Origin: a virus
Virus record (IMG/VR): IMGVR_UViG_3300036770_003984
Coordinates: 1 to 64,000 of that record
Direction: 5' to 3' (one strand)
DNA: 64,000 bases
This document shows positions 4,463 through 57,314 of this stretch, piece by piece. The first letter of the stretch is position 1. The number at the start of each line of letters is the position of its first letter. The notes under the pieces were generated by a model. It had not been told where the DNA came from, did not search any database, and saw nothing but the letters and a program-made list of their open reading frames with translations. The position numbers and the translations under genes were made by a program.

Positions 4463-4627
4463 TATAGAAGAAAGTTTTTTGTTTTGACTCAAGTCATATT
4501 TTTTTTGGGTTAAGGTCATCTCCAAAATTGATTTTCATCATCGGAAACCGAAGTGTTATAAACTATATATTGTGGTATGAAAAATAATCAAACACAAAAT
4601 ATTTTAAAATTTAAAAAACACTTTATT

Positions 4628-6028
4628 ATGAAAACTTCAATCTTAGTTCAAATCATTTTCTTCTTGTCTTTACAGTTCTCTGTATTTGCACAAATTACTT
4701 CACAATCACTAAACATTAACCCTACTAGAAATTGTCCAACACAAATCGATGGTGACATTATGGGTCAATCACAATTATGTGAGCTTAGTGAATCAACTCC
4801 TATCAAATATGAAGTAAACCCATCTAATAACATAGTTTCATATGTTTGGACAGTACCTCAAGGTATGGCAATATTCAGAGGACAGAATACTAACCAAATT
4901 TTTGTTGATACAGATTACTCATTTATAAATGGTTATGTTACAGTAAAAGGTATCAACACTTGTGGACAATATACTCAAACAGATTCATTCTATGTAGATT
5001 TGTTACCATCAACACCCATATTTCAAACATCTACTGATATGGTTAGAGCTGACCAAATTTACACATATTCTGTAAACCAATTGAATGGAGTTACTTATAC
5101 TTGGACAGCACCTTATGGTTCAGTAATTATGAGTGGTCAAGGTACTGAAACTGTATCAGTTAAGTTTAGCCAAAGTTTCAATGGTGGATTTGTGGAAGTA
5201 TATGGTGAAAATGGTTGTGGTGTTAGTCAACTCAATCAAATTAATGTAACACTTGACAATGGTTCAAACACACAAAGAATTTTATCTCAAACAGATAGAA
5301 ACTACAATAACTCTAAAACTACTTTGGCTGGTGATATTGCATTCCATTCAAACCTAACAAACGCACAATTTAGTGATACTATTAAAAATGGTGATGTTTA
5401 TTACTTTGAAGTTGTTCTTCAAAACTATTCTCAAAACCCAATGGATAGTGTTTATCTAAAATATTTCCTTAGCTCTGACCCAAACAACTATCAATTAGTT
5501 AGAATCAAACGTCTTGAAGCTGGTGAAGAATATACACTACCTGTATTAACAATCCCAACTGATGGATTAAATGGTGACGAAGAATTATCTTTGGAATTAA
5601 ATCCTGACCAAGAAAAACCTGAAACAGATTATACAAATAACTTTTTGAAAGTTCCGTTCTATGTTCAACTTACAACAACAATGGTAACTAAATTTATAAC
5701 AGATAATAGTGTTAATACTTATAATTACCCAAATCCAGTTGTTGACCATACTCAATTCTATGTTAAACTAGGTTCAAACTTTAGCAAAACTGAAAGTGTA
5801 TTAATTAACATCTTTGATTTGAGTGGACAATTTGTTAAAAGAATTACAATTAACAATTCAAATGACCAAGGTGAATTTATCTCTGAAGTTTGGAATGGTG
5901 AAAATGAAAATGGTAATACTTTAGAAAGTGGTGTTTATTTCTACACAATTAACGCAGTTAACAATCAAGGAAATCTTAAAACGTTTGCATCAAATAAACA
6001 CATTAAAATTGTAAAATTGAAGTCTTAA
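4628..6028 (+). CDS. secreted protein with PKD-like/Ig domains and T9SS type A C-terminal sorting domain
   Basis: Likely start is MKTSILVQIIFFLSLQFSVFA|Q (signal peptide plus Gln) rather than 4577. Has PKD-like repeats (TYTWTAPYG...SGQGT...ENGCG), a CARDB-like LELNPDQEKPETDYTNN segment, and a CTD (NYPNPVVD...IFDLSGQFVK...LESGVYFYTI...KIVKLK). Confidence 0.85.
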   Translation: MKTSILVQIIFFLSLQFSVFAQITSQSLNINPTRNCPTQIDGDIMGQSQLCELSESTPIKYEVNPSNNIVSYVWTVPQGMAIFRGQNTNQIFVDTDYSFINGYVTVKGINTCGQYTQTDSFYVDLLPSTPIFQTSTDMVRADQIYTYSVNQLNGVTYTWTAPYGSVIMSGQGTETVSVKFSQSFNGGFVEVYGENGCGVSQLNQINVTLDNGSNTQRILSQTDRNYNNSKTTLAGDIAFHSNLTNAQFSDTIKNGDVYYFEVVLQNYSQNPMDSVYLKYFLSSDPNNYQLVRIKRLEAGEEYTLPVLTIPTDGLNGDEELSLELNPDQEKPETDYTNNFLKVPFYVQLTTTMVTKFITDNSVNTYNYPNPVVDHTQFYVKLGSNFSKTESVLINIFDLSGQFVKRITINNSNDQGEFISEVWNGENENGNTLESGVYFYTINAVNNQGNLKTFASNKHIKIVKLKS

Positions 6029-9598: not shown

Positions 9599-10689
9599 TA
9601 ACAATAGGATTCTCAACGAGAAATGTTAGTAATGAATTTATTGATTTACTAAAACAAACATCAGGTATATCAAATTGTGAAATAATACCTATTGAAAATA
9701 ATGGAGAATATTCATTAACCGAGGTGTATAATAAAATAATTGAACAATCACAAAATGATATAATTGTTTTATGTCACGATGACATTTATTTTGATACTAA
9801 AAATTGGGGTATTAAAATATTAAATCATTTTAAACGAAATGGTGGTTTTGGTATTTTGGGTATGGCAGGTTCTGTAAGTTTACCTAAATCTGGAATGTGG
9901 TGGGAAGACTTCTCTAAAATGAGAGGTATTGTAAATCACGAACATAATGGAAAAAAATGGGAATCTAAATATTCTGAAAACAAAGGTGATGGTATTGATG
10001 AAGTTGTTTTAGTTGATGGTGTTTTTATAGTAGTTAATAAAGAAAAAATAAAGACAAAATTCAACGAAGACGTAAAAGGATTTCATTTTTATGATGTAGA
10101 CTTCTCATTTAATAATTTTATAAATGGAGTTAAAATTGGGGTAATTTATGATGTTAGAATTACTCATAAATCAATAGGCCAAACTAATGAAAAGTGGGAA
10201 GAAAATAGAAAATTATTTGTCGATAAAAATTCAGATAAATTACCTCAAAAAATAAAATATGATTTGTTTAAAACAAATAAAGTTAAAGTGATGGTATTTG
10301 ATGATAATCTAAAAACCTTTGATAAAATTTATAGATTGTTATCCAAAACAAAATCAAAAATATCTTTTTGTGGGATATTAAAAAACAAAAGTGATATTTT
10401 AAGATTAAATGCTAGTAATACAAATTATTTTACACTTTATGAACCATATGGTTATAAACTTGGTGATGGTAAATGGGGATTAAATGGTATGAATGGATTT
10501 ACTAAATCTCAACCTAATCAATTATATAAAATAAAAGAGTTTGATTATGATTTAGTTCATTGCGTAAATTCTGATATGTTTAATATGATTAAACAAATTT
10601 ACCCTAATACTTTAATTTATTCTGAAAAAAAAGATTTCAAAAGTTCGGAAGAACTATTAAACGAATATCAAAATTTATTAAATGGTTAA
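9595..10689 (+). CDS. GT-A (family 2-like) glycosyltransferase
   Basis: LCHDDIYF, VVLVDGVFIVV, GFHFYDVDFS motifs. Confidence 0.8.
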   Translation: MITIGFSTRNVSNEFIDLLKQTSGISNCEIIPIENNGEYSLTEVYNKIIEQSQNDIIVLCHDDIYFDTKNWGIKILNHFKRNGGFGILGMAGSVSLPKSGMWWEDFSKMRGIVNHEHNGKKWESKYSENKGDGIDEVVLVDGVFIVVNKEKIKTKFNEDVKGFHFYDVDFSFNNFINGVKIGVIYDVRITHKSIGQTNEKWEENRKLFVDKNSDKLPQKIKYDLFKTNKVKVMVFDDNLKTFDKIYRLLSKTKSKISFCGILKNKSDILRLNASNTNYFTLYEPYGYKLGDGKWGLNGMNGFTKSQPNQLYKIKEFDYDLVHCVNSDMFNMIKQIYPNTLIYSEKKDFKSSEELLNEYQNLLNG

Positions 10690-11473
10690 AATATTATCAG
10701 GATGGAGTAATAAGGGAGGTTCAACTTTTGCTTTTATAAATCTAACAAACGAACTCAATAAAGTTGGTATTGATACTACTTTTTATGGACCACATCAATG
10801 GCATTTGGATAAATGTAAATCAGGTCTTCTAGATAATAATTTTAGATTTACTAAAAATGATATTATTATTTGTCATTTTTTGAATTTAGGTAAGAGACCT
10901 GATGTGAAAAGAATTGTATTATCTTGTCACGAAAAGAATCTTTTTGAAGTTGGTAATATTAAACCATTTTGGGATAGTGTAGTTTTTCTAAATGAAAAAC
11001 ATAGGAATTATCATAGTAAATACAAAGGTAAATTTGAAATTATTCCAAATCTAAAAGAAAACTTGGAGAATAAAGACAAGTCTGAAGAAGTAAAAGGATG
11101 TGTGGGTATTATAGGGTCAATAGACCCAAATAAACAAACACATATATCAATTAAAAGAGCCTTAGAGGATGGTGTTAAAAAAGTATACATATTTGGTAAT
11201 GTAAGTGACCCAAATTATTATAATTCATATGTTAAACCTTTAATTGATAATGATAAAGTTATTGAATATGGATTCATAGGAGATAAACAAAAAATGTACG
11301 ATATGGTAGAGTCTGTTTATCTATCTTCAAATAGTGAGGTTGCTTCTCTAGTTCAAGATGAATGTTATACAACTGGAACTATATTCAAAGGTAATGAAGC
11401 GACAGAACACGATATTATAAATTTAAACAATAAAGAAATAATTGAAAAATGGAAAAAAATACTACGAATTTAA
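10682..11473 (+). CDS. GT-B glycosyltransferase
   Basis: SNKGGSTFA N-terminal loop, VGIIGSIDPNKQTH, SNSEVASLV. Confidence 0.7.
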   Translation: MVKILSGWSNKGGSTFAFINLTNELNKVGIDTTFYGPHQWHLDKCKSGLLDNNFRFTKNDIIICHFLNLGKRPDVKRIVLSCHEKNLFEVGNIKPFWDSVVFLNEKHRNYHSKYKGKFEIIPNLKENLENKDKSEEVKGCVGIIGSIDPNKQTHISIKRALEDGVKKVYIFGNVSDPNYYNSYVKPLIDNDKVIEYGFIGDKQKMYDMVESVYLSSNSEVASLVQDECYTTGTIFKGNEATEHDIINLNNKEIIEKWKKILRI

Positions 11474-12216
11474 AAAAACCTATCATATACGCATACTTTT
11501 TATGTTATAATGAAGCAACAATTCTACCTCATCTTTTAAAATATTATTTAACTTTTTGTGATAAAGTTTTTATATTAGATAATGGGTCAACTGACGATAG
11601 TATAAAAATAGTAAATTCATTCCCAAATACTGAAGTAATTAGATTTAATTCTAATGGTGAATTTAGAGATGATGTTCATATACAAATAAAAAATAACATT
11701 TGGAAAAATCATAAAAATGATGTTGATTATGTTATACTTGGGGATGCTGATGAATTTTTATATCATAATAATATAGTTGATTTCTTGACTGAAAAATTTA
11801 ATCAGGGGTATACTATTTTTAAACCATTTGGGTATCATATGGTAGGTGATGTTGATTTAGAATTAAGTGACAATGATAATATTTTTGAAAAAATTAAAGA
11901 TGGTATTAGAACACCAGTACTTGATAAAATGATGATATTTGATTGTAAAAAAATCAGAGAAATTAATTACTCTTATGGTTGTCACTTTGCTAACCCACAA
12001 GGTGAAGTTAAATTATATAATGGTGAAGACTTAAAAATGGTACATTATAAATTTTTAGGAGTTAAAAATTATGTATATAGAAATAGTATGAGACGAGAAC
12101 GTTTAAGTACATTTAACAAACAAAATGGACTTGGTACATATTATTTGTATTCTGATGATGAAAATGTGAAAGATTATATGGATCATTTTAATAAAAGAAC
12201 TAAAATACTTGATTAA
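11449..12216 (+). CDS. family 2 glycosyltransferase
   Basis: CYNEATIL, ILDNGSTDDS, GDADEFL motifs. Confidence 0.85.
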   Translation: MEKNTTNLKKPIIYAYFLCYNEATILPHLLKYYLTFCDKVFILDNGSTDDSIKIVNSFPNTEVIRFNSNGEFRDDVHIQIKNNIWKNHKNDVDYVILGDADEFLYHNNIVDFLTEKFNQGYTIFKPFGYHMVGDVDLELSDNDNIFEKIKDGIRTPVLDKMMIFDCKKIREINYSYGCHFANPQGEVKLYNGEDLKMVHYKFLGVKNYVYRNSMRRERLSTFNKQNGLGTYYLYSDDENVKDYMDHFNKRTKILD

Positions 12217-12926
12217 TGATAATTTTAACAACTTTTTACAACGTTGGAAACTACATTGAAAGGTGTATTCTCTCAATTAGAAATCAATCTTTAAAAGATT
12301 TCAAATGTTACCTTATTGATGATATGTCAACAGACTCTTCAGTATCTAAAATAAGACCATTAATAAAAAAAGATAAAAGATTTATCTTAATTAAGAATAC
12401 TGAAAAAAAATATAAAACAAAAAATTATGTTGACATATTATCTAATGTTGACATAAGTGACGATGAGATTGTTATTGAGTTGGATGGTGATGATTTTTTT
12501 GCTAATGATAAAGTTTTAGAAAAAGTTAATGAAGTATATAAAGACCAAAATGTATGGATAACAAATGGTAGTTTTATATATTCATCAGGTCAAAGGGGAT
12601 TTTCTTCACCACAAGTTAATTTTGATACATTAAGAACTGATAGATTTACAGCAAGTCATTTAAGAACTTGGAAAACATTTTTATGGAGAAAAATTAAAGA
12701 TGAAGACCATAGAGACAATAATGGAAATTATTTTAGATTAAATGCTGATTTGGCTTATATGTTACCTATGTTAGAAATGGCTGGGAGTTTACACTATAAA
12801 TTTATACCTGATTTAATGGTGGTTTATAACGAACAAAACCCATTAAATGACCATAAAGTTGATATGAGTTTAGTTAATAGTTGTGCAATTGAAATAAGAA
12901 GTAGAAAAAAATACGATAGGTTATGA
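12216..12926 (+). CDS. family 2 glycosyltransferase
   Basis: TTFYNVGNYI, IDDMSTDSS, ELDGDDFF motifs. Confidence 0.85.
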   Translation: MIILTTFYNVGNYIERCILSIRNQSLKDFKCYLIDDMSTDSSVSKIRPLIKKDKRFILIKNTEKKYKTKNYVDILSNVDISDDEIVIELDGDDFFANDKVLEKVNEVYKDQNVWITNGSFIYSSGQRGFSSPQVNFDTLRTDRFTASHLRTWKTFLWRKIKDEDHRDNNGNYFRLNADLAYMLPMLEMAGSLHYKFIPDLMVVYNEQNPLNDHKVDMSLVNSCAIEIRSRKKYDRL

Positions 12927-13699
12927 TAACAACATTTTTACAAGGTGGATTAGGTAATCAAATATTTCAAATTATGGCGGCAATAAGTCATAGTAAAAAA
13001 ATTAATACTGATTGTTATTTTGATTTTTCAAAGTCTAATGTTGAGACTCAAGGTCAAAGAGCAAATAAATATGCTGATAATCTATTTAAAAACTTAAATA
13101 ATACTATTATTAACTTTAATAATCTACAAAGATACATTGAACCTAGATTTAGTTTTACTCCATTACCAATTATTGATAATGTCTGTTTGATAGGTAGTTT
13201 TCAATCTGAAAAATATTTTGACAACATAAAAAATGAAATTTATGATTTATTTTATTTTGATGAAAATAAAATGAGTCAAATACAAAATTACATAAATGAA
13301 AAAACAGGTGGTGATTTAGTTACATCTCTTCATATAAGAAGAGGTGATTATCTTAGAAAACCAAACTTCCATCCAACTCAGGATTTAAATTATTATGTTA
13401 AAGCTATGGAAATTACAAATACCAAAAAATACATAGTAGTTTCTGATGACATACAATGGTGTAAAGAAAATTTTATTGGTGATAAATTTATTTTTTCAGA
13501 TTTTACTGATGAAATTGACGATTTAATGTTGATTATGAATTGTAATCACCATATTATTGCAAATAGTAGTTTTAGTTGGTGGGGAGCTTATTTGTGTAAA
13601 AATCCAAATAAAATAGTTGTTGCACCTAAATTGTGGTTTGGTCTACAAGGTCCTCAAGATACTGAGGACATTTATATAAATAATTGGATAAAAATATAA
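12923..13699 (+). CDS. alpha-1,2-fucosyltransferase (GT11)
   Basis: QGGLGNQIFQ, GSFQSEKYF, SLHIRRGDY, IIANSSFSWWGAYL motifs. Confidence 0.92.
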   Translation: MITTFLQGGLGNQIFQIMAAISHSKKINTDCYFDFSKSNVETQGQRANKYADNLFKNLNNTIINFNNLQRYIEPRFSFTPLPIIDNVCLIGSFQSEKYFDNIKNEIYDLFYFDENKMSQIQNYINEKTGGDLVTSLHIRRGDYLRKPNFHPTQDLNYYVKAMEITNTKKYIVVSDDIQWCKENFIGDKFIFSDFTDEIDDLMLIMNCNHHIIANSSFSWWGAYLCKNPNKIVVAPKLWFGLQGPQDTEDIYINNWIKI

Positions 13700-13703
13700 A
13701 AAT

Positions 13704-14327
13704 ATGTTATTAAATTTTGACCAACTTATAAAAAAATATGATTTAAAAATTAAAGGTATTATTCATATTGGTGCTCACTATGGAGATGAATATTACCTAT
13801 ATGAAAAGAACAATGTTAAAAATTTAATTTTTTTTGAAGCTTCACCGATTAATTTTGAAGTCTTAAAAGAAAGAATTAATGATAAAGCAAACTTAGTGAA
13901 TTATGCGTTAGGTAATGAAAATAAAAAAGTCATTCTAAATATTGAGACAAATAATAAAGGTATGTCTAATTCAATCTTGAAGCCTGGTATTCATTTAACT
14001 CAATATCCACATATAAAATTTGAATCTACAATTGAGGTTGATATGGTAAGATTGGATGACTATATAACACAAAATAATATTAACATAGAGAATTATAATT
14101 TTATTAATATTGATGTTCAAGGATATGAGTTGGAAGTTTTTAAAGGTGGTGAAAAAGTTCTAGAAAGTATTGATTATATTATTACCGAAGTTAATAGAGA
14201 TTATGTCTATGTTGATAACGTTTTAGTTACCGATTTAGATGAATATTTAAATAAATTTGGTTTTGAAAGAGTTGAGACATCTTGGGATGGTTATACTTGG
14301 GGAGACGCTTTTTATATAAAAAAATGA
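13704..14327 (+). CDS. FkbM-family methyltransferase
   Basis: IHIGAHYG, NYALG, NIDVQGYELEVFKG motifs. Confidence 0.9.
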   Translation: MLLNFDQLIKKYDLKIKGIIHIGAHYGDEYYLYEKNNVKNLIFFEASPINFEVLKERINDKANLVNYALGNENKKVILNIETNNKGMSNSILKPGIHLTQYPHIKFESTIEVDMVRLDDYITQNNINIENYNFINIDVQGYELEVFKGGEKVLESIDYIITEVNRDYVYVDNVLVTDLDEYLNKFGFERVETSWDGYTWGDAFYIKK

Positions 14328-15163
14328 TTAATTTATATTTTAATAATAGTGGAAGAGGTCCTGGAAAAGTTTATAGTAATTTAATTAAAGGCCTAGAATT
14401 ATTGAACATTGATTATACAATCAATCAAAATATTAATAATGGATGGAAAAATTTAATCCTACAATCTCATTGGGCATTAAATTCTGAAAAAATAAATGAT
14501 GCTATTATTGGGCCAAATATTTGTGTTTTGCCAATTGACAATCAAGAAGTTATGTCCCAAAAATATAAAAAAATTATTGTACCATCAGAATGGGTACAAA
14601 AATTATATGAAAGATGGTTACCAAAAGAAAAAATAATTGTTTGGCCAGTTGGTATTGATACGGATTATTTTAAAGATTTTTCAAATGAACATAAGACAAA
14701 TGATTGTCTAATATATTTTAAAAGACGAGATGAAAGTGAGTTAAATTTAGTAATTTCATTTTTAAAATCAATTAATCAAACTTATCAAATAGTTAAATAT
14801 GGTAGTTATTCTGAGTCTGATTTTTTAAACCATTTAAAAAGTTCTAAATATGGTATTGTCATTAATAAATGTGAATCACAAGGTATTGCAATCCAAGAAA
14901 TGATGAGTACGAATTTACCATTATTAGTTTGGGATACACCAATATGGGATGATAGAGGTGAAACTTTTAAAATAGAAGCAACATCAGTTCCTTATTGGGA
15001 TAGAAGATGTGGGTATAAATTTACAAAATTTGAAGAAATAGACGATATTTTCAATACTTTTATAGAGAAAAAAAATACTTATTCACCAAGACACTTCATT
15101 TTAGAACATTTATCTTTAGAACATAGTGTTAATAATTTAATTAAAGAATTTTATGGATTATAA
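14324..15163 (+). CDS. GT-B glycosyltransferase
   Basis: Start placed at the ATGA overlap (MINLYFNNSGRGPGKV); WPVGIDTD and ESQGIAIQEMMSTNLPLLV motifs. Confidence 0.75.
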   Translation: MINLYFNNSGRGPGKVYSNLIKGLELLNIDYTINQNINNGWKNLILQSHWALNSEKINDAIIGPNICVLPIDNQEVMSQKYKKIIVPSEWVQKLYERWLPKEKIIVWPVGIDTDYFKDFSNEHKTNDCLIYFKRRDESELNLVISFLKSINQTYQIVKYGSYSESDFLNHLKSSKYGIVINKCESQGIAIQEMMSTNLPLLVWDTPIWDDRGETFKIEATSVPYWDRRCGYKFTKFEEIDDIFNTFIEKKNTYSPRHFILEHLSLEHSVNNLIKEFYGL

Positions 15164-15821
15164 TGAATTTTTAAAATACTATACAATAGAAACTTTATCA
15201 TCAATTGATGTAAACATACATGAAGTGATGTTAAATAAATTTATTTCATTGCAAAAAGAAAAAAAAGAATTTATTTTTTTTGATATAGGTTGTAATGGAG
15301 GTAGTTTTATTAAAACGATTAAAAATAAAGGTATTAATGCTAAAATTCATGCTTTTGAACCACACCCATACCTATTCAAATATTTAACTGAAACTTATCC
15401 TAACGATAAGATAAATTGTGAATGTGTAACAAATATTGATGGAAAATGTAATATAAATATACCATTATATTCTGTTGGTTTAAGTAGTATAATAAAAAGA
15501 CCTATATTTGAGAGTTTAAAAACTACTCAAGAAATTAAATCACTAGAGTGTAATGCCATAAGATTGGATTCATATTGTAAAAAAAATGATATTAGACAAA
15601 TTGATTTTATTAAAATAGATGTTGAAGGTGCTGAGTATTTTGTGTTTGAAGGGGCACAAAAGTTATTAAGTGAAAATAAAATTTTATGTGGACAATTTGA
15701 AGTAGGTATTGAAGAAAGTGGTCATACTACTAATGATATATTAAATATGTTAATAAAATATGGTTATGAAGTTGATAAAACTTTAAAATCTGATTACTTT
15801 TTTTTTTTAAAAAATAAATAA
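15153..15821 (+). CDS. FkbM-family methyltransferase
   Basis: FDIGCNGG, AFEPHP, IKIDVEGAE motifs. Confidence 0.9.
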   Translation: MDYNEFLKYYTIETLSSIDVNIHEVMLNKFISLQKEKKEFIFFDIGCNGGSFIKTIKNKGINAKIHAFEPHPYLFKYLTETYPNDKINCECVTNIDGKCNINIPLYSVGLSSIIKRPIFESLKTTQEIKSLECNAIRLDSYCKKNDIRQIDFIKIDVEGAEYFVFEGAQKLLSENKILCGQFEVGIEESGHTTNDILNMLIKYGYEVDKTLKSDYFFFLKNK

Positions 15822-16435
15822 TGGATAATAACATCATAATAACAATCTCAACAGCAATAATAGACGATAATATTACAAAAGAACAAAGAATTTTAGAATA
15901 TGAAGAGTGTTTTAATATAATTAAAGGTTTTGGGTATTTTGATTTCTATATTGTAGAAACTGTTTTATCCTATTCTGACTTTCTAGAAAAACATTCCAAA
16001 AATGTTTTTTATACAAACGTTAATGGGAAGTATAACAATAGAGGTACTAACTATGTAAATTCATTTAAAAAGTTTTTAAATGAATCTAAATTTAATGATG
16101 ATGATATTATAGTTCATATAACTGGTAGATACCCATTAACTGATGATTCTTTTTTTAAGAATTGTTTAAAATTGGAAAAGGAAAAAATTGGTTGTTTTAA
16201 AAAAGATAGACACAATCAATGTTATTTATTTCTATATGGAATGAGATTTAAGGAGTTAAAAGGGTTATTAAATAGTATAAACGTAGATTATATGGAACGT
16301 AATATGATTAACTTAGAAATGTTATTTTCACAAAACATACCAGAAGATACTATTATGTTATTAGATAATTTAGGAATAATAGGTAGACAAAGTAATGAAA
16401 AAAATCCAAATGTTTATGGAAAATTAAAATTTTAA
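15821..16435 (+). CDS. hypothetical protein in the glycan cluster
   Basis: ORF track; VHITGRY motif; coupled to its neighbours. Confidence 0.7.
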   Translation: MDNNIIITISTAIIDDNITKEQRILEYEECFNIIKGFGYFDFYIVETVLSYSDFLEKHSKNVFYTNVNGKYNNRGTNYVNSFKKFLNESKFNDDDIIVHITGRYPLTDDSFFKNCLKLEKEKIGCFKKDRHNQCYLFLYGMRFKELKGLLNSINVDYMERNMINLEMLFSQNIPEDTIMLLDNLGIIGRQSNEKNPNVYGKLKF

Positions 16436-16438
16436 ATT

Positions 16439-17098
16439 ATGAGTGAAATATTAACATTAAATGAAATAGGTCTTAAAAATAAAAGTGACAAATCATCTGA
16501 ATACCATAATTATCTAAAATTATATGATAAGTATTTTTCTATTTATAGAAATAAAAATATAAATTTTTTAGAAATCGGTATTTTATTTGGTGATTCTCTA
16601 AAAATATTTGATGAATATTTTATAAATGGAAATATAACTGCAATTGATATTGAAGATAAATCATATCTAAGTAAAAGTAATATACAAATTATTAAAGGTG
16701 ACCAATCTGATATAAATTTATTAAATCGTTTTGAGGATAATAAATATGATATTATTTTAGATGATGGCTCTCACAATATGAGTCACCAACAAATATCTTT
16801 AGGTGTTCTTTTTAAAAAATTAAAAAGTGGTGGTCTTTACATCATTGAAGATTTACACACTAGTTGTTATGAATATAGAGAAAATATAATGTACAATAAT
16901 AAATTATTTGGACTAACAAATGATAATAGTACTATTGATTTTCTAAATGGTATAAAAAATAAAACGGATAAAAATAAATATTTAACCACAAAAGAATATG
17001 AGTATCTATGTGAAAATATTGAAAGTATTGAAATTTTTGAAACTAGTAGAAAGAATAACAATGAATTTTCAATCACATCAATAATAAAGAAAAAATAA
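16439..17098 (+). CDS. class I SAM methyltransferase (sugar O-methyltransferase-like)
   Basis: LEIGILFG, IILDDGSH, GGLYIIEDL motifs. Confidence 0.85.
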   Translation: MSEILTLNEIGLKNKSDKSSEYHNYLKLYDKYFSIYRNKNINFLEIGILFGDSLKIFDEYFINGNITAIDIEDKSYLSKSNIQIIKGDQSDINLLNRFEDNKYDIILDDGSHNMSHQQISLGVLFKKLKSGGLYIIEDLHTSCYEYRENIMYNNKLFGLTNDNSTIDFLNGIKNKTDKNKYLTTKEYEYLCENIESIEIFETSRKNNNEFSITSIIKKK

Positions 17099-17749: not shown

Positions 17750-18475
17750 ATGGCAACAAGAAAAAAACCAACACAACCTCAAAACACTGAGGAAACAAAA
17801 AAAACAAAAAAGGAAATTATTTGTGAAATAATCAAAAAGAAATCCAAAGAAAAGTTCTTATCAGACAATCAAAAATTATATTATGATTTGTTGAAAAAAA
17901 ATCAAATAACAATTTGTTCAGGTCCTGCAGGTGTTGGTAAATCATATATTGCAATGAAAGCAGCACTAGATATTTTATCTGACCCAACCACACCATACGA
18001 AAAAATTATTATTGTAAGACCTGCGGTTGAAGCTGAAGAAAAACTAGGTTCTCTACCTGGAAATGTTGAAGAAAAATTAGATCCTTATATTTTCCCCTCA
18101 TATTACTTAATGAATAAAATCATTGGCAAAGAAACAAGAGAAAAATTGAAAGACATTGATGTTATTGAAGTTTTCGCTTTGGCTTATATGAGAGGTATGA
18201 ATATTGATAACTCCATTCTTATATTTGAGGAAGCTCAAAATTCAACTCCTAACCAAATGAAATTACTCTTGACAAGGATTGGGTTCAATAGTAAATTTTT
18301 TATCAGTGGTGACTTAGAACAGACCGATAGATATAAAGATAAGACACACTCAGGATTGTATGATGCAATCAAGAAGTTCAAAGGTTTGGATGATGTTGGA
18401 GTTTTTGAATTTGATAATAAAGATGTGGTTAGAAATCCATTAATCGGAAAAATATTAAAAAGATACGAAGAATGA
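17750..18475 (+). CDS. phoH: PhoH-family ATPase
   Basis: GPAGVGKS, EKLGSLPG, YMRG, EEAQN, SGDLEQTD motifs. Confidence 0.95.
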   Translation: MATRKKPTQPQNTEETKKTKKEIICEIIKKKSKEKFLSDNQKLYYDLLKKNQITICSGPAGVGKSYIAMKAALDILSDPTTPYEKIIIVRPAVEAEEKLGSLPGNVEEKLDPYIFPSYYLMNKIIGKETREKLKDIDVIEVFALAYMRGMNIDNSILIFEEAQNSTPNQMKLLLTRIGFNSKFFISGDLEQTDRYKDKTHSGLYDAIKKFKGLDDVGVFEFDNKDVVRNPLIGKILKRYEE

Positions 18476-20447: not shown

Positions 20448-21242
20448 ATGCAAAAATTTGACGTTTCAGTTATATTACCAATTAAGTCCTCAAGTTCAGT
20501 TGAGTTTGATTCTTATTTTGAAAAAGCAATCAATTCGTTAAAAGAACAAAAAACCCAAATAAATGAATTAATAATTGTTTATTGTGAGGAAACAAACTTA
20601 ATTGAAAAACTTGATACTTATGACTTTGGTGATATACAAGTAAAAAAATTGGCTTGGAAGGAAACCCCAAACTTTGCCAATCAAATTAATTATGGGGTAC
20701 AAAACGCATCTTCTGAGTGGGTTTCAATATTTGAGTTTGATGATGAATATTCCAAGATTTGGTTTGATAATGTAAAAAAGTATAGTGAAGTATATGATAA
20801 AGTTCACGTATTTTTACCAATAGTTGTTGATACTGATGATAAAGGAAAATTTGTTGGTTTTACAAATGAAGCTACCTTCGCATTGAACATTGCTACAGAA
20901 ATGGGAATTCTTACTAATGAAGTTTTACAAGATTTTCAGAATTTCCAAATGTCTGGTATGGTTGTTAAAAAACAAACATTCATTGATTTGGGTATGTTAA
21001 AACCATCATTCAAATTAACCTTTGGTTATGAAATGTTTTTGAGATTAACATATAGTGGTGTAAGAATTATGACCATTCCTAGAATTGGGTACAAACATAC
21101 AAATTTTAGAGAGGGTTCAATATTTTGGAACTACAAAAATGGAGAAAATGTACTAAGTCAAAATGAAATTAAATTTTGGATTGACTCAGCTAAAAACGAA
21201 TACTTCTTTACTACAGATAGAGAAATAAAATTTCAAGACTAA
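20448..21242 (+). CDS. family 2 glycosyltransferase
   Basis: VSVILPI, QINYGV, FEFDDEY motifs. Confidence 0.8.
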   Translation: MQKFDVSVILPIKSSSSVEFDSYFEKAINSLKEQKTQINELIIVYCEETNLIEKLDTYDFGDIQVKKLAWKETPNFANQINYGVQNASSEWVSIFEFDDEYSKIWFDNVKKYSEVYDKVHVFLPIVVDTDDKGKFVGFTNEATFALNIATEMGILTNEVLQDFQNFQMSGMVVKKQTFIDLGMLKPSFKLTFGYEMFLRLTYSGVRIMTIPRIGYKHTNFREGSIFWNYKNGENVLSQNEIKFWIDSAKNEYFFTTDREIKFQD

Positions 21243-26126: not shown

Positions 26127-27593
26127 ATGTCAATTAATAATTCTTATTTCAGTAGAAATAACACTATAATACATAAAAGTTATACAAACACAGGTAGTAA
26201 TCCAGTTACTGAAATATTTTATGGAAAAATATTCAATTCTGATTTGCCATCATCTTATAGTAGGTTTATTTTCAATTTGGATTTAACTTTGTTAAAACAA
26301 AAAATAAAAGATAAAACTATAAGTACCAATTGTACATCTGGGTTAACACATACTTTGAGAATGACAAATACAGGTTCATTTAATAGAGAACTATTAAATA
26401 CCAACACATCTCAAGCAAGAAAAAGAGCAACATCATTTGATTTAATACTATTTAGGATTCCATTTATTGACGATGATACTAGTCAACCACAAATTTGGGA
26501 TGAAGGTGTTGGTTATGATTTTAGTGATTTTGTATACGAATTTAATGAATTAGATAGAAATTTTTCTAATAGACCATCAAATTGGTATCAACGAACAACT
26601 ATTAATAATTGGTCTGAAGAAGGATTATATAATAATCAAAATTTAGGTTCTTACCCATACTCCGCACTCACAATTGTAGATGAACAACATTTTGAATTTG
26701 GGGATGAGAATATTGAATTTGATATGACTAATGAAATAAATGATGTATTAAATGGTTCTTTAAGTGGTGTTACTGGTTGGGGGATTGCATATAAACCACA
26801 ATTAGAACTATTATCTGATTTAGATTCAGCGTATGAAGTTCAATTCTTTACAAGACATACTCAAACATTCTATGAACCTTATTTGGAAACATCGTATAAT
26901 GATTTAATAGAAGATGATAGAAATAATTTTACTTTAGGTAAAGTTAATAAATTATATCTTTATTTATACGAAGATGGTAATCCAATTAATTTAGATAATT
27001 TACCCAAAGTCACAATTCTTGATAATTCAGGAAATATTATACCAAGTTTATCGGCAATAACAAGTTGTCAAAAAACCCAAGGGGTGTATGAAGTAACTAT
27101 TCCACCGCTTATTGGTTATAAAACTCCTTGCACATTTTCAGACAAATGGACTGGATTAACTTATAATGGATTTCCATTACCTAATGTAACAAATGATTTT
27201 ACGTTACAACCATTTAAAAATGGATTCACAATTGGTACAAATTCTCAAGACCCTAAAATATATGGATTTGATTATTATGGAATTAAACAAGATGAAAAGA
27301 TATTTAATACCGATATAAGAAAAGTTGGGGTTATTATCAAACAAGCATACACCACTAATAAATTATTACCAAAAGTTAGTGCTTATTATCGTGTGTATGT
27401 TAGAGAAGGACAAACTGAAGTTCAAGTTCAAGATTGGACTCAAATTAATAGAACTCCTAATGAATACTATTTCATCTTTGATACAAGAGATAAAATTCCA
27501 AATGAATATTATATTGATATTAAAGTTGAAAGTAGTGGGGAAATCAATACATATAAAAGACAAATAAAATTCCAAATCGTGAATTATAAATAA
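26127..27593 (+). CDS. putative virion structural protein
   Basis: 488-aa beta-rich ORF, TATTTAT at 26105-26111. Confidence 0.7.
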   Translation: MSINNSYFSRNNTIIHKSYTNTGSNPVTEIFYGKIFNSDLPSSYSRFIFNLDLTLLKQKIKDKTISTNCTSGLTHTLRMTNTGSFNRELLNTNTSQARKRATSFDLILFRIPFIDDDTSQPQIWDEGVGYDFSDFVYEFNELDRNFSNRPSNWYQRTTINNWSEEGLYNNQNLGSYPYSALTIVDEQHFEFGDENIEFDMTNEINDVLNGSLSGVTGWGIAYKPQLELLSDLDSAYEVQFFTRHTQTFYEPYLETSYNDLIEDDRNNFTLGKVNKLYLYLYEDGNPINLDNLPKVTILDNSGNIIPSLSAITSCQKTQGVYEVTIPPLIGYKTPCTFSDKWTGLTYNGFPLPNVTNDFTLQPFKNGFTIGTNSQDPKIYGFDYYGIKQDEKIFNTDIRKVGVIIKQAYTTNKLLPKVSAYYRVYVREGQTEVQVQDWTQINRTPNEYYFIFDTRDKIPNEYYIDIKVESSGEINTYKRQIKFQIVNYK

Positions 27594-27619
27594 ACTTTTG
27601 ATATTTATAAATAAAAATT

Positions 27620-27805
27620 ATGGCAGAATATACTTACCCAATTAGTGCTACAAGTGCAAATACTGAAGTTATTATGTGTGAACTTTGTGATGGTACTGTA
27701 ACACCAGTTACACCCCCACATCCAATATGGACTGATGCTCAAAATAAACCAGTCATTCAATTAAACGCAATTACATTGGGTGGTGTTAATGGATTAAATA
27801 GTTAA
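27620..27805 (+). CDS. small protein with CxxC
   Basis: ORF track; TATTTAT at 27602-27608. Confidence 0.7.
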   Translation: MAEYTYPISATSANTEVIMCELCDGTVTPVTPPHPIWTDAQNKPVIQLNAITLGGVNGLNS

Positions 27806-27810
27806 ATTAT

Positions 27811-28281
27811 ATGAGAATCACAGAATCACAAATCAACAAACTCGTTAAAAAAATAGTTAACGAAAAAGATTATGGAAAAGTACAAAACTATATGTTTTTC
27901 AGTAATCTAGAACAAATGATAAGACAAGCACAATTGTTACTAGAATTAGACCCAATGGAAGTAGAGAAAATTCTTCAAGGTGGTCACGATTGGGCTGATG
28001 ACCATATCGCAACAGCAAAAGAAAACTTAGACCAAGTGTTTGACTTTCTAATGAACGAAACTCAATATTCTGACGAATTCTATGATGAAGAAGAAGATGT
28101 GGTTATGATGGAAGGAAAAAAGAAAACTGGAACAAAATTATGTTCAAGAGGATATAATGCAGCTAAGAGTAAATTTAAAGTTTTTCCCAGTGCTTATAGT
28201 AATGGTTACGGAGTACAAGTATGTAAAGGTGACAAACCTGGATTAGATGGAAAAAAACGTTGTTCACCACCTTATTGTTAA
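27811..28281 (+). CDS. hypothetical (probable head-associated) protein
   Basis: N-terminal MRITESQINKLVKKIVNE; Cys-containing basic C-terminus. Confidence 0.75.
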   Translation: MRITESQINKLVKKIVNEKDYGKVQNYMFFSNLEQMIRQAQLLLELDPMEVEKILQGGHDWADDHIATAKENLDQVFDFLMNETQYSDEFYDEEEDVVMMEGKKKTGTKLCSRGYNAAKSKFKVFPSAYSNGYGVQVCKGDKPGLDGKKRCSPPYC

Positions 28282-28286
28282 AATAT

Positions 28287-28314
28287 AAAAGAGGACATTA
28301 AGTCCTCTTTTTTT
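28287..28314. terminator. bidirectional terminator
   Basis: aaaagaggac-atta(a)-gtcctctttt between convergent genes. Confidence 0.8.
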
Positions 28315-30886
28315 ATATCTTATGTAAAATTGATTTTGAATTAATACTTTTCATTTCACCCTTGTTATTTCTACATACAATGTTATAGAAATAAACACCT
28401 GATGAAAATTCACTCATACCATCCCATTTCTCAGAAACAAACTTACCAAAACCATCATTGTTATTTAATTTGATTGTTTTAAGAATAGTACCTTTAATAT
28501 CAAACACCTCAATCAACAATTCATCAGCCTCAGAAAATTCATTACCAAGATTCACAACAAATGTTGTATAATCTTTAATTGGGTTTGGATAGTTATAAAT
28601 CTCATTTTTCATTTCAATTTTATTAACTGATGATAACAAAATTTGTTGTGGTATTGTATCTTCATAAATATTTTGATTGTGTACGATTCTTAAAGCAGGA
28701 TCTCCGTGATATATTAAATAATCTGCAGCCAATTCATTTAATAATCCATTATTTGATAAACTACTCATAGCCATTTTTATTAATTCACCATTTGTTTTAT
28801 TTTCAGTTCCAAGTAATCTGTAAAATTCTGTAGTAAAAGAATTAACTGAGAATAAAGAAATTGGTTTTGAAAATCCAAGGAATGCTGAAACTCCTCTGTT
28901 TGGACTTAGAACTAAGGTTTCACTTAAATCTTGTGTGGAGTTAAAAATATTTCCACTTGAGCAACTTAGAGACATAAAAAGGGGGTATTTGTATTTGTTA
29001 TTATATCTTTCGATTTTATTTAATTCAAAATCAATACTAGTTTCAGTTGCATGACCTAAATAAGTCATAATAGATACTCCTTTATTAAGTGTTGAATTTA
29101 AAGTTGAATCATTATTAGAATTTGTAAGATTAAAGTTTTCTTTATAAAACGAATGAACATTAGCATTAAATTCACTATTTTCCAAATTATCACCCAATGT
29201 GTTTATAACATTTGCAAACATTTGTTGTTCCGTTACATTAACACCACCACTTAAATGTAATACGTTTTTATCCCAAGAATTATCAGATGAATTTTTATAA
29301 GTTTCCATCTCAATAATTTTATTCATATAAACTCTAAACTCATCACCATTTGTTACGGATAATCTACCAACTGAAAGACTTGGTGTTGTTTGTCCTTTTT
29401 TTGTAAACAACATATTATCAGACCCAGGATAACCAAATGTTGGAATTTGAACATCGTATGTACTGAAATTTCTAACTTGATTATATTCCTTTGCTTTACC
29501 AATTAAAAATACGTGTTTTGGATTATCCCAATGAGTTAAAATATAATCTGAAAAGTTTCTAATTGATTGTGGGTGCAAATCTATACCATAACCAAATTGG
29601 TCAAAAATTTCTTGGATATTAACAATAATTGGGTTGTGTTCTGATGAACGATATGCCGCCCACTCAATAAGAGGATTGTCACCATATACATCATTAAACA
29701 TTTTACTATGTGCAATCATTACATAATCACCATTATAGTTTTGGTAGTTAGTGAAATTAACCTTATCAACTTTACCAACCAATTTAGTATTAGATAAAGT
29801 AATTAACACCAATTCTCTATCAACAGATGATGCTGGTAAATCAGTTAATACTTTTTGAGTATTAACATCATAAAAACAATGTATTCTAACTCCATTTGTA
29901 ATATCAAAAAGATAAACTTGATTTGACATCCCATTAAAATTATCTATTTCCAAGAATTTTCTTCCACCAGCACCAACATTAAATTGATATACACTTTTAC
30001 CTTCAAAGTTAAAACTTCTTGGGTATGTTACTTTAACATAACTGATTGAATGTTTGTCTAAACTATTATCCAAACCTCTAACTGAAAGTGTTGTTGTTTG
30101 TTGAAGACTTTGAAGTTCAATTTGAGTTGTGATAATTGTGTCGCCATAATACAACATATTAAGTATTGGTTGATTAGATATTGAGTATTCAACATTGTGA
30201 TTAAAACCTTTTGAATACATTCTAACCTCAACACTTGGTTTAATTGTGGTTTGTATAAAGTATGGTGTGTTTAATGTAATTGATTGATTTGTTGATAATT
30301 GACTACCATATCCTTCACCATATTCAAATGAACTTCTTGAGAAATCAATTCCACTAATTGAATATTCTTTCCCTACTGACCATATTAAGTTGGGGAGAAC
30401 CACAACCTCGGAAATGAAATAATTTTCTCTCTGAGGGAGATTTGTGAGGTTTGATGATATGTTTTGATATCTTTTTCCATTGATTGAATTATCCCAAGTT
30501 AAGAAATAAGAAGATGAATCTGTAATAAGACTATATTTAGGATTAAAGTGTCCGTTATTATATAGTTCTTTATCTAAAGTAGATTTATTTTTTTGACCCC
30601 AAAATTCAATGTAGTCAACTGAATCACCATTCATTTTAACATTGATTGGAATTTCTTGACCATTTAAAAATAATTGGATATTTGTTTGTGTTAATTTTGA
30701 TAAATCAACACCTGACATTGTTAGATGTGATGATGGAATACGATAAAGTCCATCCTCGGAAATTTTGAATTTGTAATATGTGTTTTGATAGTTTATCCAT
30801 TCATTACCGAATTTACCATCAGACATTTGTCCAAAAGAAAAACCACCAATTAGAAGAAAGATTAAAGTTAAAAGTATTGTTTTCAT
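28313..30886 (-). CDS. C25-family (gingipain/PorU-like) cysteine peptidase with signal peptide and T9SS CTD
   Basis: Start MKTILLTLIFLLIGGFSFG|Q. N-terminal GNEWINY...YYKFKISEDGLYRI; catalytic-type MTYLGH (His codon 29051-29053) and MSLSC (Cys codon 28961-28963); YHGDPALRI; CTD NYPNPIKD...VFDIKGTILK...SSGVYFYNI. Confidence 0.88.
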   Translation of the reverse strand: MKTILLTLIFLLIGGFSFGQMSDGKFGNEWINYQNTYYKFKISEDGLYRIPSSHLTMSGVDLSKLTQTNIQLFLNGQEIPINVKMNGDSVDYIEFWGQKNKSTLDKELYNNGHFNPKYSLITDSSSYFLTWDNSINGKRYQNISSNLTNLPQRENYFISEVVVLPNLIWSVGKEYSISGIDFSRSSFEYGEGYGSQLSTNQSITLNTPYFIQTTIKPSVEVRMYSKGFNHNVEYSISNQPILNMLYYGDTIITTQIELQSLQQTTTLSVRGLDNSLDKHSISYVKVTYPRSFNFEGKSVYQFNVGAGGRKFLEIDNFNGMSNQVYLFDITNGVRIHCFYDVNTQKVLTDLPASSVDRELVLITLSNTKLVGKVDKVNFTNYQNYNGDYVMIAHSKMFNDVYGDNPLIEWAAYRSSEHNPIIVNIQEIFDQFGYGIDLHPQSIRNFSDYILTHWDNPKHVFLIGKAKEYNQVRNFSTYDVQIPTFGYPGSDNMLFTKKGQTTPSLSVGRLSVTNGDEFRVYMNKIIEMETYKNSSDNSWDKNVLHLSGGVNVTEQQMFANVINTLGDNLENSEFNANVHSFYKENFNLTNSNNDSTLNSTLNKGVSIMTYLGHATETSIDFELNKIERYNNKYKYPLFMSLSCSSGNIFNSTQDLSETLVLSPNRGVSAFLGFSKPISLFSVNSFTTEFYRLLGTENKTNGELIKMAMSSLSNNGLLNELAADYLIYHGDPALRIVHNQNIYEDTIPQQILLSSVNKIEMKNEIYNYPNPIKDYTTFVVNLGNEFSEADELLIEVFDIKGTILKTIKLNNNDGFGKFVSEKWDGMSEFSSGVYFYNIVCRNNKGEMKSINSKSILHKI

Positions 30887-31140
30887 AGTATAAAAATTAT
30901 TTGTTTTAATTAATATACTATATAAGAGACTCAAAGACCCTATATTTCTTGGTGACCTAAATCAAGGTTATTAAACGTCATATCAATAAATGATTTGGGT
31001 TACTCGGTTTTAGATTGATTAATGATTGGGGTCACAATTATTCAAAAAATAAAATATTTTTCAATTTAATAAAACTTTATATTATAATATTACGTTTAGT
31101 ATTGGAAAAGTATTATTTTTACATTTAAATAATTAAACCT

Positions 31141-31482
31141 ATGAAAAAACTATTTTTGTTATTACTTTTACTTTTTAGTTTTGGTGTATTTGCACAATAT
31201 AATATTAACACTGAAATCAAAAATGATACTATTATTTTAGAGTATAAAACAATAGTACTATTTGATAGTAATGATTATATTAACATATTAGGTCAAAAAT
31301 TATTTGACCAAGAAATTTTGATTAAACATATTTTAATATGTCAATCAAATAATACAGCAATTTATAGATATATGTATTTCTTAAAACCTAAAATACAATG
31401 TGAAGAATATTTAAATAATTTATTAGAAAAATGTAAAGAAAAATATCCGAATTCTTTTTTACTAAATTGTTTAGATATATGA
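31141..31482 (+). CDS. secreted protein, SPOR-like C-terminus (paralog 1)
   Basis: Signal peptide ending FGVFA|Q; ends RYMYFLKPK...EEYLNNLLEKCKEKYPNSFLL. Confidence 0.7.
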   Translation: MKKLFLLLLLLFSFGVFAQYNINTEIKNDTIILEYKTIVLFDSNDYINILGQKLFDQEILIKHILICQSNNTAIYRYMYFLKPKIQCEEYLNNLLEKCKEKYPNSFLLNCLDI

Positions 31483-31515
31483 TAATTAATATATTTATGT
31501 ATAAAACGAAAATAT

Positions 31516-32706
31516 ATGACATGTTGTAATAAAAGAATAATAATTACTGAAGAAGATAGAAAACATATTTTAGGTATGTATGGGGTTATTCTAGAAACGG
31601 ATAAAATAAAACCCAATGAACAAGAAAAAGTAATTAAATTAGACCAACTTTATGCTAATGGTTATTATTCTATAACTAATAATAATAAAGCTAAATTTAA
31701 TGCAATTTTAGATGCCCAACTATTACCTACATTAAAACAATATCCTAATGTTAAATTAAATATTGATGTTAGGGCAGGTGAATCTATTTCTCCTAATTAT
31801 GACTATGAGTTAAAGGATAATAAACTTAAACCTGATATGTATCTTGCAAATCTTAGAAGAGATAAAATGATTGCATACCTAAATCAATATCTACAAGATT
31901 CTGGTTTAAAAAACTTACCAAATGTTAGTAATGTGCCAAATACACCAGGAACAAATGTTTGGAGAGGTAGGTCAGGTAAAGCAGATAATGGTATTGATAG
32001 ATTTGTTGAGGTTGTAATAGATTTAAATATTCCAGGTTTATGTTTAACTAATCTAAAAATTGAAGTTATTTATGACAAAAGTCCAGCAACGGCAGAATTT
32101 CCATGTAGAGGAAAACATAAATGTGATAGAGCAATATTTAATGTAAAATTAAATGGGGTTGTAATAGGTGAGGCTAATTTAAATAATGAGAATGATGGTG
32201 GAAGTAGAAACGCGACATTAATAGTTACTTCAGAACAAGCAACAACAATAGGTGGTAATTCTAATCAATTAGTATTAGCATTGGAAGGAATTCATGAAAA
32301 ACCCCACGATGATGTTCCTGAAGTAAGAATAACTGACCCTAAAGGTAATGTTATATTTCATGGATGTTGTGCTATTTTATCAGTTGGTAAAGGTCAAGAT
32401 AGGACTCTATTAATGTTAGACAAATGTGGAACAAAAGTTTTATCAGCATCAAAAGCGGTTGGTGTTGGTGAACCAACAAAGGATCAACTTGGTAGACCTA
32501 CATATGTTATTGGTACTGAAATGCAACTTCGTGACGATATAATACCAATTCTTAGAAAGACTAAAAGTATAACTGAAAATAACGATGGTACTATTACTTT
32601 TATTCAAAATTATTCAACAACTAAATTTAGATTTAATGCGGGTCTAACTATAAATCCACAAAAACCAATTATAATATCACCAAATGGTGAAGTCTCACAA
32701 AGATAA
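31516..32706 (+). CDS. protein with degenerate OmpA-like domain and N-terminal head-protein-type leader
   Basis: Leader IIITEEDRKHILGMYGVILE; LYANG...YPNVKLNIDVRAGES...YLANLRRDKMIAYL...DRFVEVVI follows OmpA C-domain spacing. Confidence 0.6.
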   Translation: MTCCNKRIIITEEDRKHILGMYGVILETDKIKPNEQEKVIKLDQLYANGYYSITNNNKAKFNAILDAQLLPTLKQYPNVKLNIDVRAGESISPNYDYELKDNKLKPDMYLANLRRDKMIAYLNQYLQDSGLKNLPNVSNVPNTPGTNVWRGRSGKADNGIDRFVEVVIDLNIPGLCLTNLKIEVIYDKSPATAEFPCRGKHKCDRAIFNVKLNGVVIGEANLNNENDGGSRNATLIVTSEQATTIGGNSNQLVLALEGIHEKPHDDVPEVRITDPKGNVIFHGCCAILSVGKGQDRTLLMLDKCGTKVLSASKAVGVGEPTKDQLGRPTYVIGTEMQLRDDIIPILRKTKSITENNDGTITFIQNYSTTKFRFNAGLTINPQKPIIISPNGEVSQR

Positions 32707-32731
32707 AAACTACATAAATAGTTTTTTTTTT

Positions 32732-32762
32732 AAAAGGTAGAAAAATATTTCTACCTTTTTTT
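32732..32762. terminator. intrinsic terminator
   Basis: aaaaggtagaaa-aata-tttctaccttttt. Confidence 0.8.
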
Positions 32763-32791
32763 GTTTTATAATTAAAACCTTTTTATCTTTG
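32760..32791 (+). promoter_or_regulatory. Bacteroidota primary-sigma promoter
   Basis: TTTG (32760-63), N20, TATCTTTG (32784-91); matches the TTTG-N19-21-TAnnTTTG consensus. Confidence 0.7.
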
Positions 32792-56923: not shown

Positions 56924-57304
56924 GGGGAGTAACTGGTATCGATTGACATTGTTGGTTATTAGGGGCATGTCAGACCTAAACTAAGTCTGTTAAACTGGTT
57001 TGAAACGATAGACGGCAACGTTATCAACAAACTTTCTGCAGTAGGTTTAATCCGTGCTGAAGAAGCAGTAGTAGCCTAGTCAATAGGGTATTACTTTCGA
57101 GTCGGGGTGCATTAACTCAGGAACAGGAGCACTATAGGGTTGTCTAATCAATTCTCATCCCTAAAAATGAATTGACCGATTTTGTTGATTTTGGGTGTAT
57201 AAAAATCAAATAGCTCGGAACATTGCGAATAATGTTGTCCTAAGCATGTAGTCCTTAGTAATTGAGATGGGCAAGAATTGGGTTCGATTCCCAAACTCTC
57301 CACC
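56924..57304 (+). ncRNA. ssrA: tmRNA
   Basis: 5' GGGGAGT pairs with 3' ACTCTCC-A-CC, giving the G3:U70 Ala identity pair; T-arm ttggg-ttcgatt-cccaa; gcatgt segments at both ends; tag ORF 57014-57079 GNVINKLSAVGLIRAEEAVVA*. Confidence 0.92.
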
Positions 57305-57314
57305 TTTAAAAAAG

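Follow-up and report, generated by a model that had tools for sequence, protein, structure and literature searches.

The window analysed here is the first 64 kb (64,000 nucleotides) of the 128,541-bp virus record IMGVR_UViG_3300036770_003984 of IMG/VR, whose completeness is estimated at 43%. It contains a gene for a homologue of PorU2, a protein family of Bacteroidota, and we refer to it as the PorU2-like gene. The gene is antisense to both flanking genes, as the first-pass annotation of this DNA had noted. Its start codon is likely the ATG at 30886, which gives a protein of 857 amino acids (aa); a longer, TTG-extended form of the open reading frame (ORF) reaches 30934 (28313-30934, minus strand). 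The features of the gene and of its surroundings are collected in Table 1.

The first-pass annotation had described the product as a gingipain/PorU-like C25 protease routed through the host type IX secretion system (T9SS), and the sequence elements behind that description all reappeared in our analysis. The N-terminus is hydrophobic by eye (M-K-T-I-L-L...F-S-F-G) and is followed by Gln20, in agreement with the proposed Sec signal and Gln; the column of this residue holds Gln in 113 of 121 homologues. The YLGH and LSC motifs, taken as catalytic in type, contain His612 and Cys642, which align with the segments of PorU (6za2) and RgpB (1cvr) that hold their catalytic His and Cys and are kept in 117 and 116 of the 121 homologues, respectively. 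The GDP motif is part of HGDP (residues 727-730), which is invariant across alignments A1 and A2, and the suggested profile search for a C25 domain returned a strong Pfam match. The type A C-terminal domain (CTD) scores 26.8 bits with TIGR04183 on the protein and 32.8 bits in a six-frame genome search (cut-off 23). The Pfam model Por_Secre_tail (PF18962) is borderline, with 24 bits on the protein (gathering score 27) and 29.3 bits in the six-frame genome search; the C-terminus as a whole is a beta-rich tail. Because a C25 domain with an intact dyad is combined with a type A CTD, one would naturally predict from the sequence that the protein is routed through the host T9SS.

Table 1. Features of the PorU2-like gene, the window and the adjoining part of the record (window positions unless stated otherwise)
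Feature	Position	Strand	Basis or remark
PorU2-like gene, 857 aa	28313..30886	-	ORF and translation; signal peptide, then a PorU2-type N-terminal region that includes the C25 peptidase domain, and a type A CTD
Sec-type signal peptide (residues 1-19) and Gln20	30827..30886	-	read by eye from the translation
Peptidase_C25 catalytic domain, residues 388-734	28685..29725	-	Pfam E 8e-58
His612 codon (YLGH)	29051-29053	-	profile alignment to PorU (6za2) and RgpB (1cvr)
Cys642 codon (SLSC)	28961-28963	-	profile alignment to PorU (6za2) and RgpB (1cvr)
Type A T9SS CTD, residues 766-842	28361..28591	-	TIGR04183, PF18962
Terminator-like hairpin, two-sided, between the convergent genes 27811-28281 (+) and PorU2-like (-)	28287..28311	both	10-pair stem, 4 G-C pairs, T-runs on both strands
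Gene 3' of the PorU2-like gene, convergent	27811-28281	+	ORF list
Gene 5' of the PorU2-like gene	31141-31482	+	ORF list
PKD_6 protein, 483 aa, with PorU2-type Ig-like domain and type A CTD	4577..6028	+	Pfam PKD_6 1.5e-30, FlgD_ig; TIGR04183 29.6 bits
LTD-CTD protein, 445 aa	record 75326-76663 (L005 11326-12663)	-	weak lamin-tail-domain (LTD) match; type A CTD 50 bits
gp23 major capsid	right of the PorU2-like gene		Pfam Gp23 1.5e-72
gp20 portal	right of the PorU2-like gene		Portal_T4 4.4e-77
Prohead protease (gp21-type)	right of the PorU2-like gene		Peptidase_S77 1e-22
Terminase, T4-type	right of the PorU2-like gene		Terminase_6N 2e-12
NUMOD3 homing-endonuclease-like (directly after the PKD_6-CTD gene), PolB-exonuclease-like, dUTPase, PhoH	6142-7047, 8295-9598, 17750-18475	+	
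Sugar-modifying run: Glyco_tranf_2_5, two glycosyltransferases of family 2 (GT2), GT11 (fucosyltransferase-like), weak GT4, two FkbM-type methyltransferases, another methyltransferase, further GT2	9595-17098, 20448-21242	+	
ClpB/Hsp104-type double AAA+ ATPase	52609-54639	+	AAA_2 1e-67, ClpB_D2-small
tmRNA, full-length	56924-57305	+	ARAGORN with predicted tag peptide; Rfam RF00023 87 bits, gathering score 47
Array of 24 tRNA genes	record ~66.3-82.1 kb (L005 2331-18127)	-	beyond the window

A PorU2-family protein in a T4-like phage genome

The protein scores 550 bits with the NCBIfam model NF052324 (PorU_rel_Nterm, 'putative type IX secretion system sortase PorU2') against a curated cut-off of 450, covering model positions 3-769 of 879, and 167.7 bits with the PorU model NF033707, under the cut-off of 420. 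A profile built from 28 homologues matches Porphyromonas gingivalis PorU in the PDB (6za2, 1.3e-10) and also gingipains R and K, and a single-sequence phmmer search against the PDB gave no match. The best Foldseek match in the PDB for the AlphaFold2 model (pLDDT 81, pTM 0.78; CTD low-confidence) is PorU 6za2, with E 2.8e-26 and an alignment that covers the entire length; RgpB and Kgp rank behind it. The phage protein belongs to the PorU2 family and is neither a gingipain nor PorU proper.

Thus, of the earlier label, the C25 assignment stands, and both gingipain and PorU in the strict sense give way to PorU2. The gingipains RgpB and Kgp share the catalytic domain fold and the dyad, but the peptidase domain alone matches them (profile E about 1e-8 to 1e-9), whereas the long N-terminal beta-rich region of the phage protein is of PorU type. 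P. gingivalis PorU (PG0026, 6ZA2) is alike over the whole structure, aligns at the catalytic His and Cys, and is itself both a T9SS cargo and a CTD-bearing surface enzyme. However, the phage protein falls below the cut-off of the PorU model, is only ~22% identical to PorU and has PorU as an outgroup in the tree described below.

The genome that carries the gene is that of a T4-like (gp23-type), tRNA-rich, large phage of Bacteroidota. To the right of the PorU2-like gene lie the T4-type capsid, portal, prohead protease and terminase genes. To the left are genes for a dUTPase, a PolB-exonuclease-like protein, PhoH, a NUMOD3 endonuclease and many glycosyltransferases and methyltransferases, and the GC content is even across the region (0.24-0.33). 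Contig L104 of an NCBI metagenome, 33.5 kb long and 88-93% identical in nucleotide sequence, holds the S77 protease gene, gp23 and, further on, the PorU2-like gene, after which genes of 488, 519, 72, 649, 124, 248, 264 and 353 aa follow as in the window; the two remain colinear up to a GT2 gene. The contig of an 82%-identical homologue (P0003) has the same neighbours in its gene table. Moreover, contigs from other samples bridge both ends of the gene. The 3' end is spanned at 27520-28603 and 27996-28514, by contigs from a further sample of the same study as well as from a marine metagenome that belongs to a different one, and the 5' end at 29997-31049 by a contig of the marine study. We therefore reject a chimera, and the viral origin of the contig across both junctions, which had been listed as a point to confirm, is borne out.

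Copies of the gene elsewhere were sought in two phage collections. A tblastn search with the protein against 50,697 GenBank phage records (INPHARED) gave no match, and three scans of IMG/VR contigs (with the single protein, alignment A1 and the phage-clade alignment A2) yielded no further viral contig. Since the IMG/VR scans used few peptide patterns and may not have covered records close to that of the window, they are weak evidence of rarity.

Bacterial PorU2, the phage clade and the companion genes

At about 1,650-1,750 aa, bacterial PorU2 proteins are about twice as long as the phage form. Their full-length frames span 1,625-1,890 aa and have C-terminal Ig-like domains before the CTD; the shorter entry P0019 (968 aa) and the ORF that follows it (720 aa) are two pieces of one 1,662-aa protein. 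The bacterial homologues are preceded by a gene of 370-378 aa that matches the PorV2 model NF052325 with 447-540 bits, and PorV2 lies directly upstream of PorU2 in the bacterial loci L004, L011 and L012. Where the best 80 loci come from named genomes, these are nearly all assigned to Saprospiraceae, Chitinophagaceae, Lewinellaceae or other Chitinophagales, and the few other labels are probably due to mis-binning. The NF052324 cut-off was passed in 32 of 251 sampled Bacteroidota genomes. True PorU was above the NF033707 cut-off in four of five PorU2-bearing genomes searched, and PorU2, a paralogue of PorU, is therefore a second, parallel sorting enzyme rather than a replacement. We found no paper on PorU2 in the literature.

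The phage protein resembles PorU2 of Saprospiraceae and other Chitinophagales in that its N-terminal 740 residues match the family model above the cut-off, and it has the His, Cys and HGDP motifs, the Gln after the signal peptide and a homologous CTD. It differs in being phage-encoded, in its length of 857 aa, in lacking an upstream PorV2 gene and in sharing no more than 41% identity with its nearest bacterial counterparts. Alignment shows that it corresponds to bacterial PorU2 minus approximately residues 740-1545, that is, about 800 internal and C-terminal residues, with the CTD retained.

The phylogeny against PorU that the first-pass annotation had called for was computed by a quick LG+G4 search with 57 rows and rooted on PorU; P0007 (a near-duplicate of P0006), more distant matches and short fragments were left out. 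The closest relatives of the phage protein are metagenome proteins with 36-91% identity. A clade of 22 rows (SH-aLRT 100) takes in all four homologues whose genomic context was checked and is phage-like, and it is nested within PorU2 of Saprospiraceae and Chitinophagales, with PorU as the outgroup. Its successive sisters are P0026 and then a bacterial group with PorV2 context (P0018, P0019; 41% identity). This pattern is consistent with a single capture after which the gene stayed in phages for a long time. Compared with the L104 copy, the ratio of nonsynonymous to synonymous substitution rates (dN/dS) is 0.14 overall, 0.35 in the CTD and lowest, 0.09, in the C25 domain; therefore, the gene is maintained by selection in phage genomes.

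Several relatives add detail on these contexts. The 140-kb contig of L002/L003 has at least 10 genes in common with the phage, in the same order and at 42-87% identity (most at 53-87%). Genes for a DNA methylase, UvdE and ART-PolyVal proteins lie on the L009/L010 contig, and the gene table of the P0023 contig lists holin, HNH/NUMOD4, GIY-YIG and PolB-exonuclease genes. Sugar-nucleotide and methyltransferase genes lie directly upstream of the PorU2-like gene of L105, a 66%-identical relative. Another clade member, L015 (57% identical, cut by the contig end), lies on a 4.2-kb contig in a metagenome-assembled genome bin of Saprospira sp.; it is either a piece of phage DNA that ended up in the bin of its host, a hint in that case that the host is one of the Saprospiraceae, or a bacterial copy within the clade.

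The phage record contains exactly three type A CTD matches: the PorU2-like protein, a PKD_6 protein and an LTD protein. A PKD_6/SprB-type gene directly follows the PorU2-like gene on the same strand in L002, in L009/L010 and on the P0023 contig. A type A CTD was detected in the adjoining PKD_6 protein of L002 and L009/L010, and none is recorded for the P0023 neighbour. The PKD_6 protein of the window is an orthologue of these neighbours, with 51% identity to that of L002 and 41% to that of L009. Over its C-terminal half, it aligns colinearly with the final ~400 residues of full-length bacterial PorU2 (Ig-like domain and CTD), and the CTDs of the two phage proteins, PKD_6 and PorU2-like, share 42% identity. 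From the shared PorU2-type tail and the repeated adjacency, it follows that the enzyme and its PKD_6 companion travel together, and the PKD_6-CTD protein is a candidate for a phage-encoded cargo or partner.

In L002, the PorU2-like and PKD_6 pair occupies a slot near the place where this phage has its LTD-CTD gene. The PorU2-like and CTD genes appear to behave as movable accessory cassettes, resembling the variable T9SS-cargo islands of Cryophage (PMC7468147). In Cryophage, phage genes end in type A CTDs, are presumed to hijack the host T9SS and lie in variable islands (Bellas et al. 2020, PMC7468147); the CTD genes studied here are likewise found at different places in related phages. However, the Cryophage cargo consists of enzymes (endoglucanase, GH39, PA14 protein), with no T9SS machinery or sorting component reported (PMC7468147), whereas in the present phage it is the sorting enzyme that has a phage-encoded homologue.

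Predicted role at the surface of the infected cell

PorU of P. gingivalis is exported by the T9SS and retains its CTD, being both cargo and sortase (PMC4560394, PMC8545088, PMC5445135). At the cell surface, where it is bound to the PorV barrel, it removes the CTDs of cargo proteins and joins the cargo to anionic lipopolysaccharide (LPS) supplied by PorZ (PMC4560394, PMC8545088, PMC5562754, PMC5445135). Cleavage of CTDs together with transfer to anionic LPS has been described for P. gingivalis PorU alone (PMC4560394, PMC8545088).

By analogy, we favour the interpretation, which we hold to be somewhat probable, that the shortened phage PorU2 is exported by the T9SS and acts as a peptidase or sortase on CTD proteins at the surface of the infected cell. 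The protein would be exported by Sec, and its N-terminal Gln may be cyclised; it would then pass through the host T9SS by means of its own CTD and stay, as PorU does, at the outer side of the outer membrane, with a PorV/PorV2-type barrel as its probable dock. The dock is assigned to the host because no member of the PorV2/PorV family was found in the phage record. There, the enzyme would cleave the CTDs of T9SS substrates and possibly transfer these substrates to a surface glycolipid. The likeliest substrates would be the PKD_6-CTD and LTD-CTD proteins of the phage itself, perhaps joined by host cargo, and the surface of the infected cell would be re-tailored, for example by a coat of phage protein or by altered T9SS-dependent receptors. 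In Flavobacterium, sensitivity to phages depends on T9SS and gliding genes (10.1101/2020.10.02.323337, PMC9804748), and we therefore speculate that the changed display could exclude competitors or spare progeny. As for the receptor shaving, superinfection exclusion and matrix degradation proposed for the protein in the first-pass annotation, we infer at most that they might occur.

Several points weigh against a processing role acquired and kept in the way proposed here. The phage form is without about half of bacterial PorU2, and no PorV2/PorV-family member was found in the 128.5-kb phage record, which is estimated to be ~43% complete. The term sortase is carried over to PorU2 from PorU, with which the phage protein is ~22% identical, and the model presumes that the host has a T9SS with PorV2. 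In this phage, the PKD_6-CTD gene is 22 kb from the PorU2-like gene. As to the clade, a phage-like context was checked in only 4 of its 22 members, the tree comes from a quick search and several of its rows have skewed composition. Furthermore, the members L014 and L015 have a higher GC content (0.41-0.43) and an unclear origin, and they share with the phage only the PorU2-like and CTD-protein genes.

Alternatively, the protein might be a plain secreted or surface cysteine protease, a gingipain-like T9SS cargo that digests receptors, matrix or prey proteins and neither cleaves CTDs nor works as a sortase. In favour of this reading are the intact dyad of the C25 domain, a CTD such as any cargo bears, the absence of the C-terminal half of bacterial PorU2 and of a PorV2 partner in the record, and RgpB and Kgp as the next-best structural matches. 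Nevertheless, it is the whole N-terminal 740 residues, and not just the peptidase domain, that match the PorU2 model and the PorU structure; the protein is nested inside PorU2 in the tree, and the repeated adjacency to a CTD gene with a PorU2-like tail fits a processing enzyme better. We therefore regard a plain protease as unlikely, yet as the foremost of the alternatives.

A bolder version of the processing hypothesis draws in the sugar-modifying genes of the window, which may be linked to a glycan anchor. The phage would then encode a self-contained kit for coating the surface, in which at least five to six glycosyltransferases and the FkbM-type methyltransferases build or alter a glycolipid anchor, to which the PorU2-type sortase ligates the phage CTD proteins (PKD_6-CTD, LTD-CTD). 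If this were true, the infected cell would be re-coated with a phage-specified glycoprotein, for example excluding other phages or sparing progeny from binding to debris. We consider this version distinctly unlikely.

The short protein could also act as a decoy or competitor that occupies the PorV2/PorV dock of the host and blocks or diverts the sorting of cargo such as adhesins, gliding proteins or receptors, with catalysis being secondary. Half the size of its bacterial relatives, it retains the PorU2-type CTD and comes without a barrel of its own, and T9SS and gliding surface proteins have been linked to phage sensitivity in Flavobacterium (10.1101/2020.10.02.323337, PMC9804748). However, conservation is strongest in the C25 domain with its catalytic His and Cys (dN/dS 0.09), and a pure decoy would have no need of that, which makes this reading improbable. 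Finally, host DNA misassembled into the phage contig, or a recent capture without a role in the phage, would suit the lack of matches in the INPHARED phages and IMG/VR scans and the immediate neighbours without family matches, but this reading is effectively excluded by the gene order shared with L104 from gp23 across the PorU2-like gene to the GT2 gene, the same neighbours in P0003, the contigs of another study that bridge both ends, the even GC content and the deep clade that holds all copies with phage context and is under purifying selection.

The family itself is already known, PorU2 being catalogued in NCBIfam, and phage-borne T9SS cargo has been published (PMC7468147). The remark in the first-pass annotation that it knew of no such characterisation in phages holds for the PorU-like protein, for which we found no description in the searched literature, but not to T9SS cargo. 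What is new is the phage-borne homologue of a sorting enzyme, its half-size architecture, the deep clade into which all four copies with a checked phage-like context fall, and the repeated association with a PKD_6 protein that bears a PorU2-type tail. If the proposed processing role is correct, phages of Bacteroidota manipulate protein processing and fixing at the surface, beyond what is secreted, and they do so at the very site where phage sensitivity is controlled by T9SS and gliding proteins. The phage form is also a natural minimal PorU2 of about half the size, with the catalytic core and CTD kept under purifying selection, and so a handle on the role of the PorU2/PorV2 branch of the T9SS.

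Flanks of the gene and other features of the window

The first-pass annotation had likened the gene to a moron with its own terminator. The opposite orientation and a hairpin are indeed present, and the position of the gene is the same in L104 and different in the related phage L002. However, the hairpin is two-sided and common to the convergent plus-strand gene, and therefore it is not private to the PorU2-like gene. Sigma-70-type promoter sites were no more frequent than expected by chance in a scan (26 found against 32 expected), and inspection by eye revealed no clear promoter of the Bacteroidota or T4-late type upstream of the gene. The immediate neighbours are without family matches. In a PHROGs search, neither the PorU2-like gene nor most of its neighbours were assigned to a family; phrog_27331 matches the C-terminus of the convergent gene.

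A role as a virion component was considered and rejected, as a signal peptide with a T9SS CTD does not fit cytoplasmic assembly.

The tRNA array beyond the window includes four tRNA-Leu genes (two with anticodon taa) and two tRNA-Val genes (tac). Such an array is characteristic of very large phages.

Immediately flanking the PorU2-like gene on its 5' side, a 1.7-kb stretch (31062-32782) holds ORFs of 113 and 396 aa without known family. It is absent from the otherwise colinear L104 and is therefore a variable insertion. On the other side, the 488-aa gene at 26127-27593 attracted very many short partial contig matches from four metagenomes, with skips and loose ends, at window positions 26500-27600, and its summed contig depth is far above that of its surroundings. 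This suggests that the gene holds a repeated or mosaic motif common to many phages, and its product is possibly tail-fibre-like.

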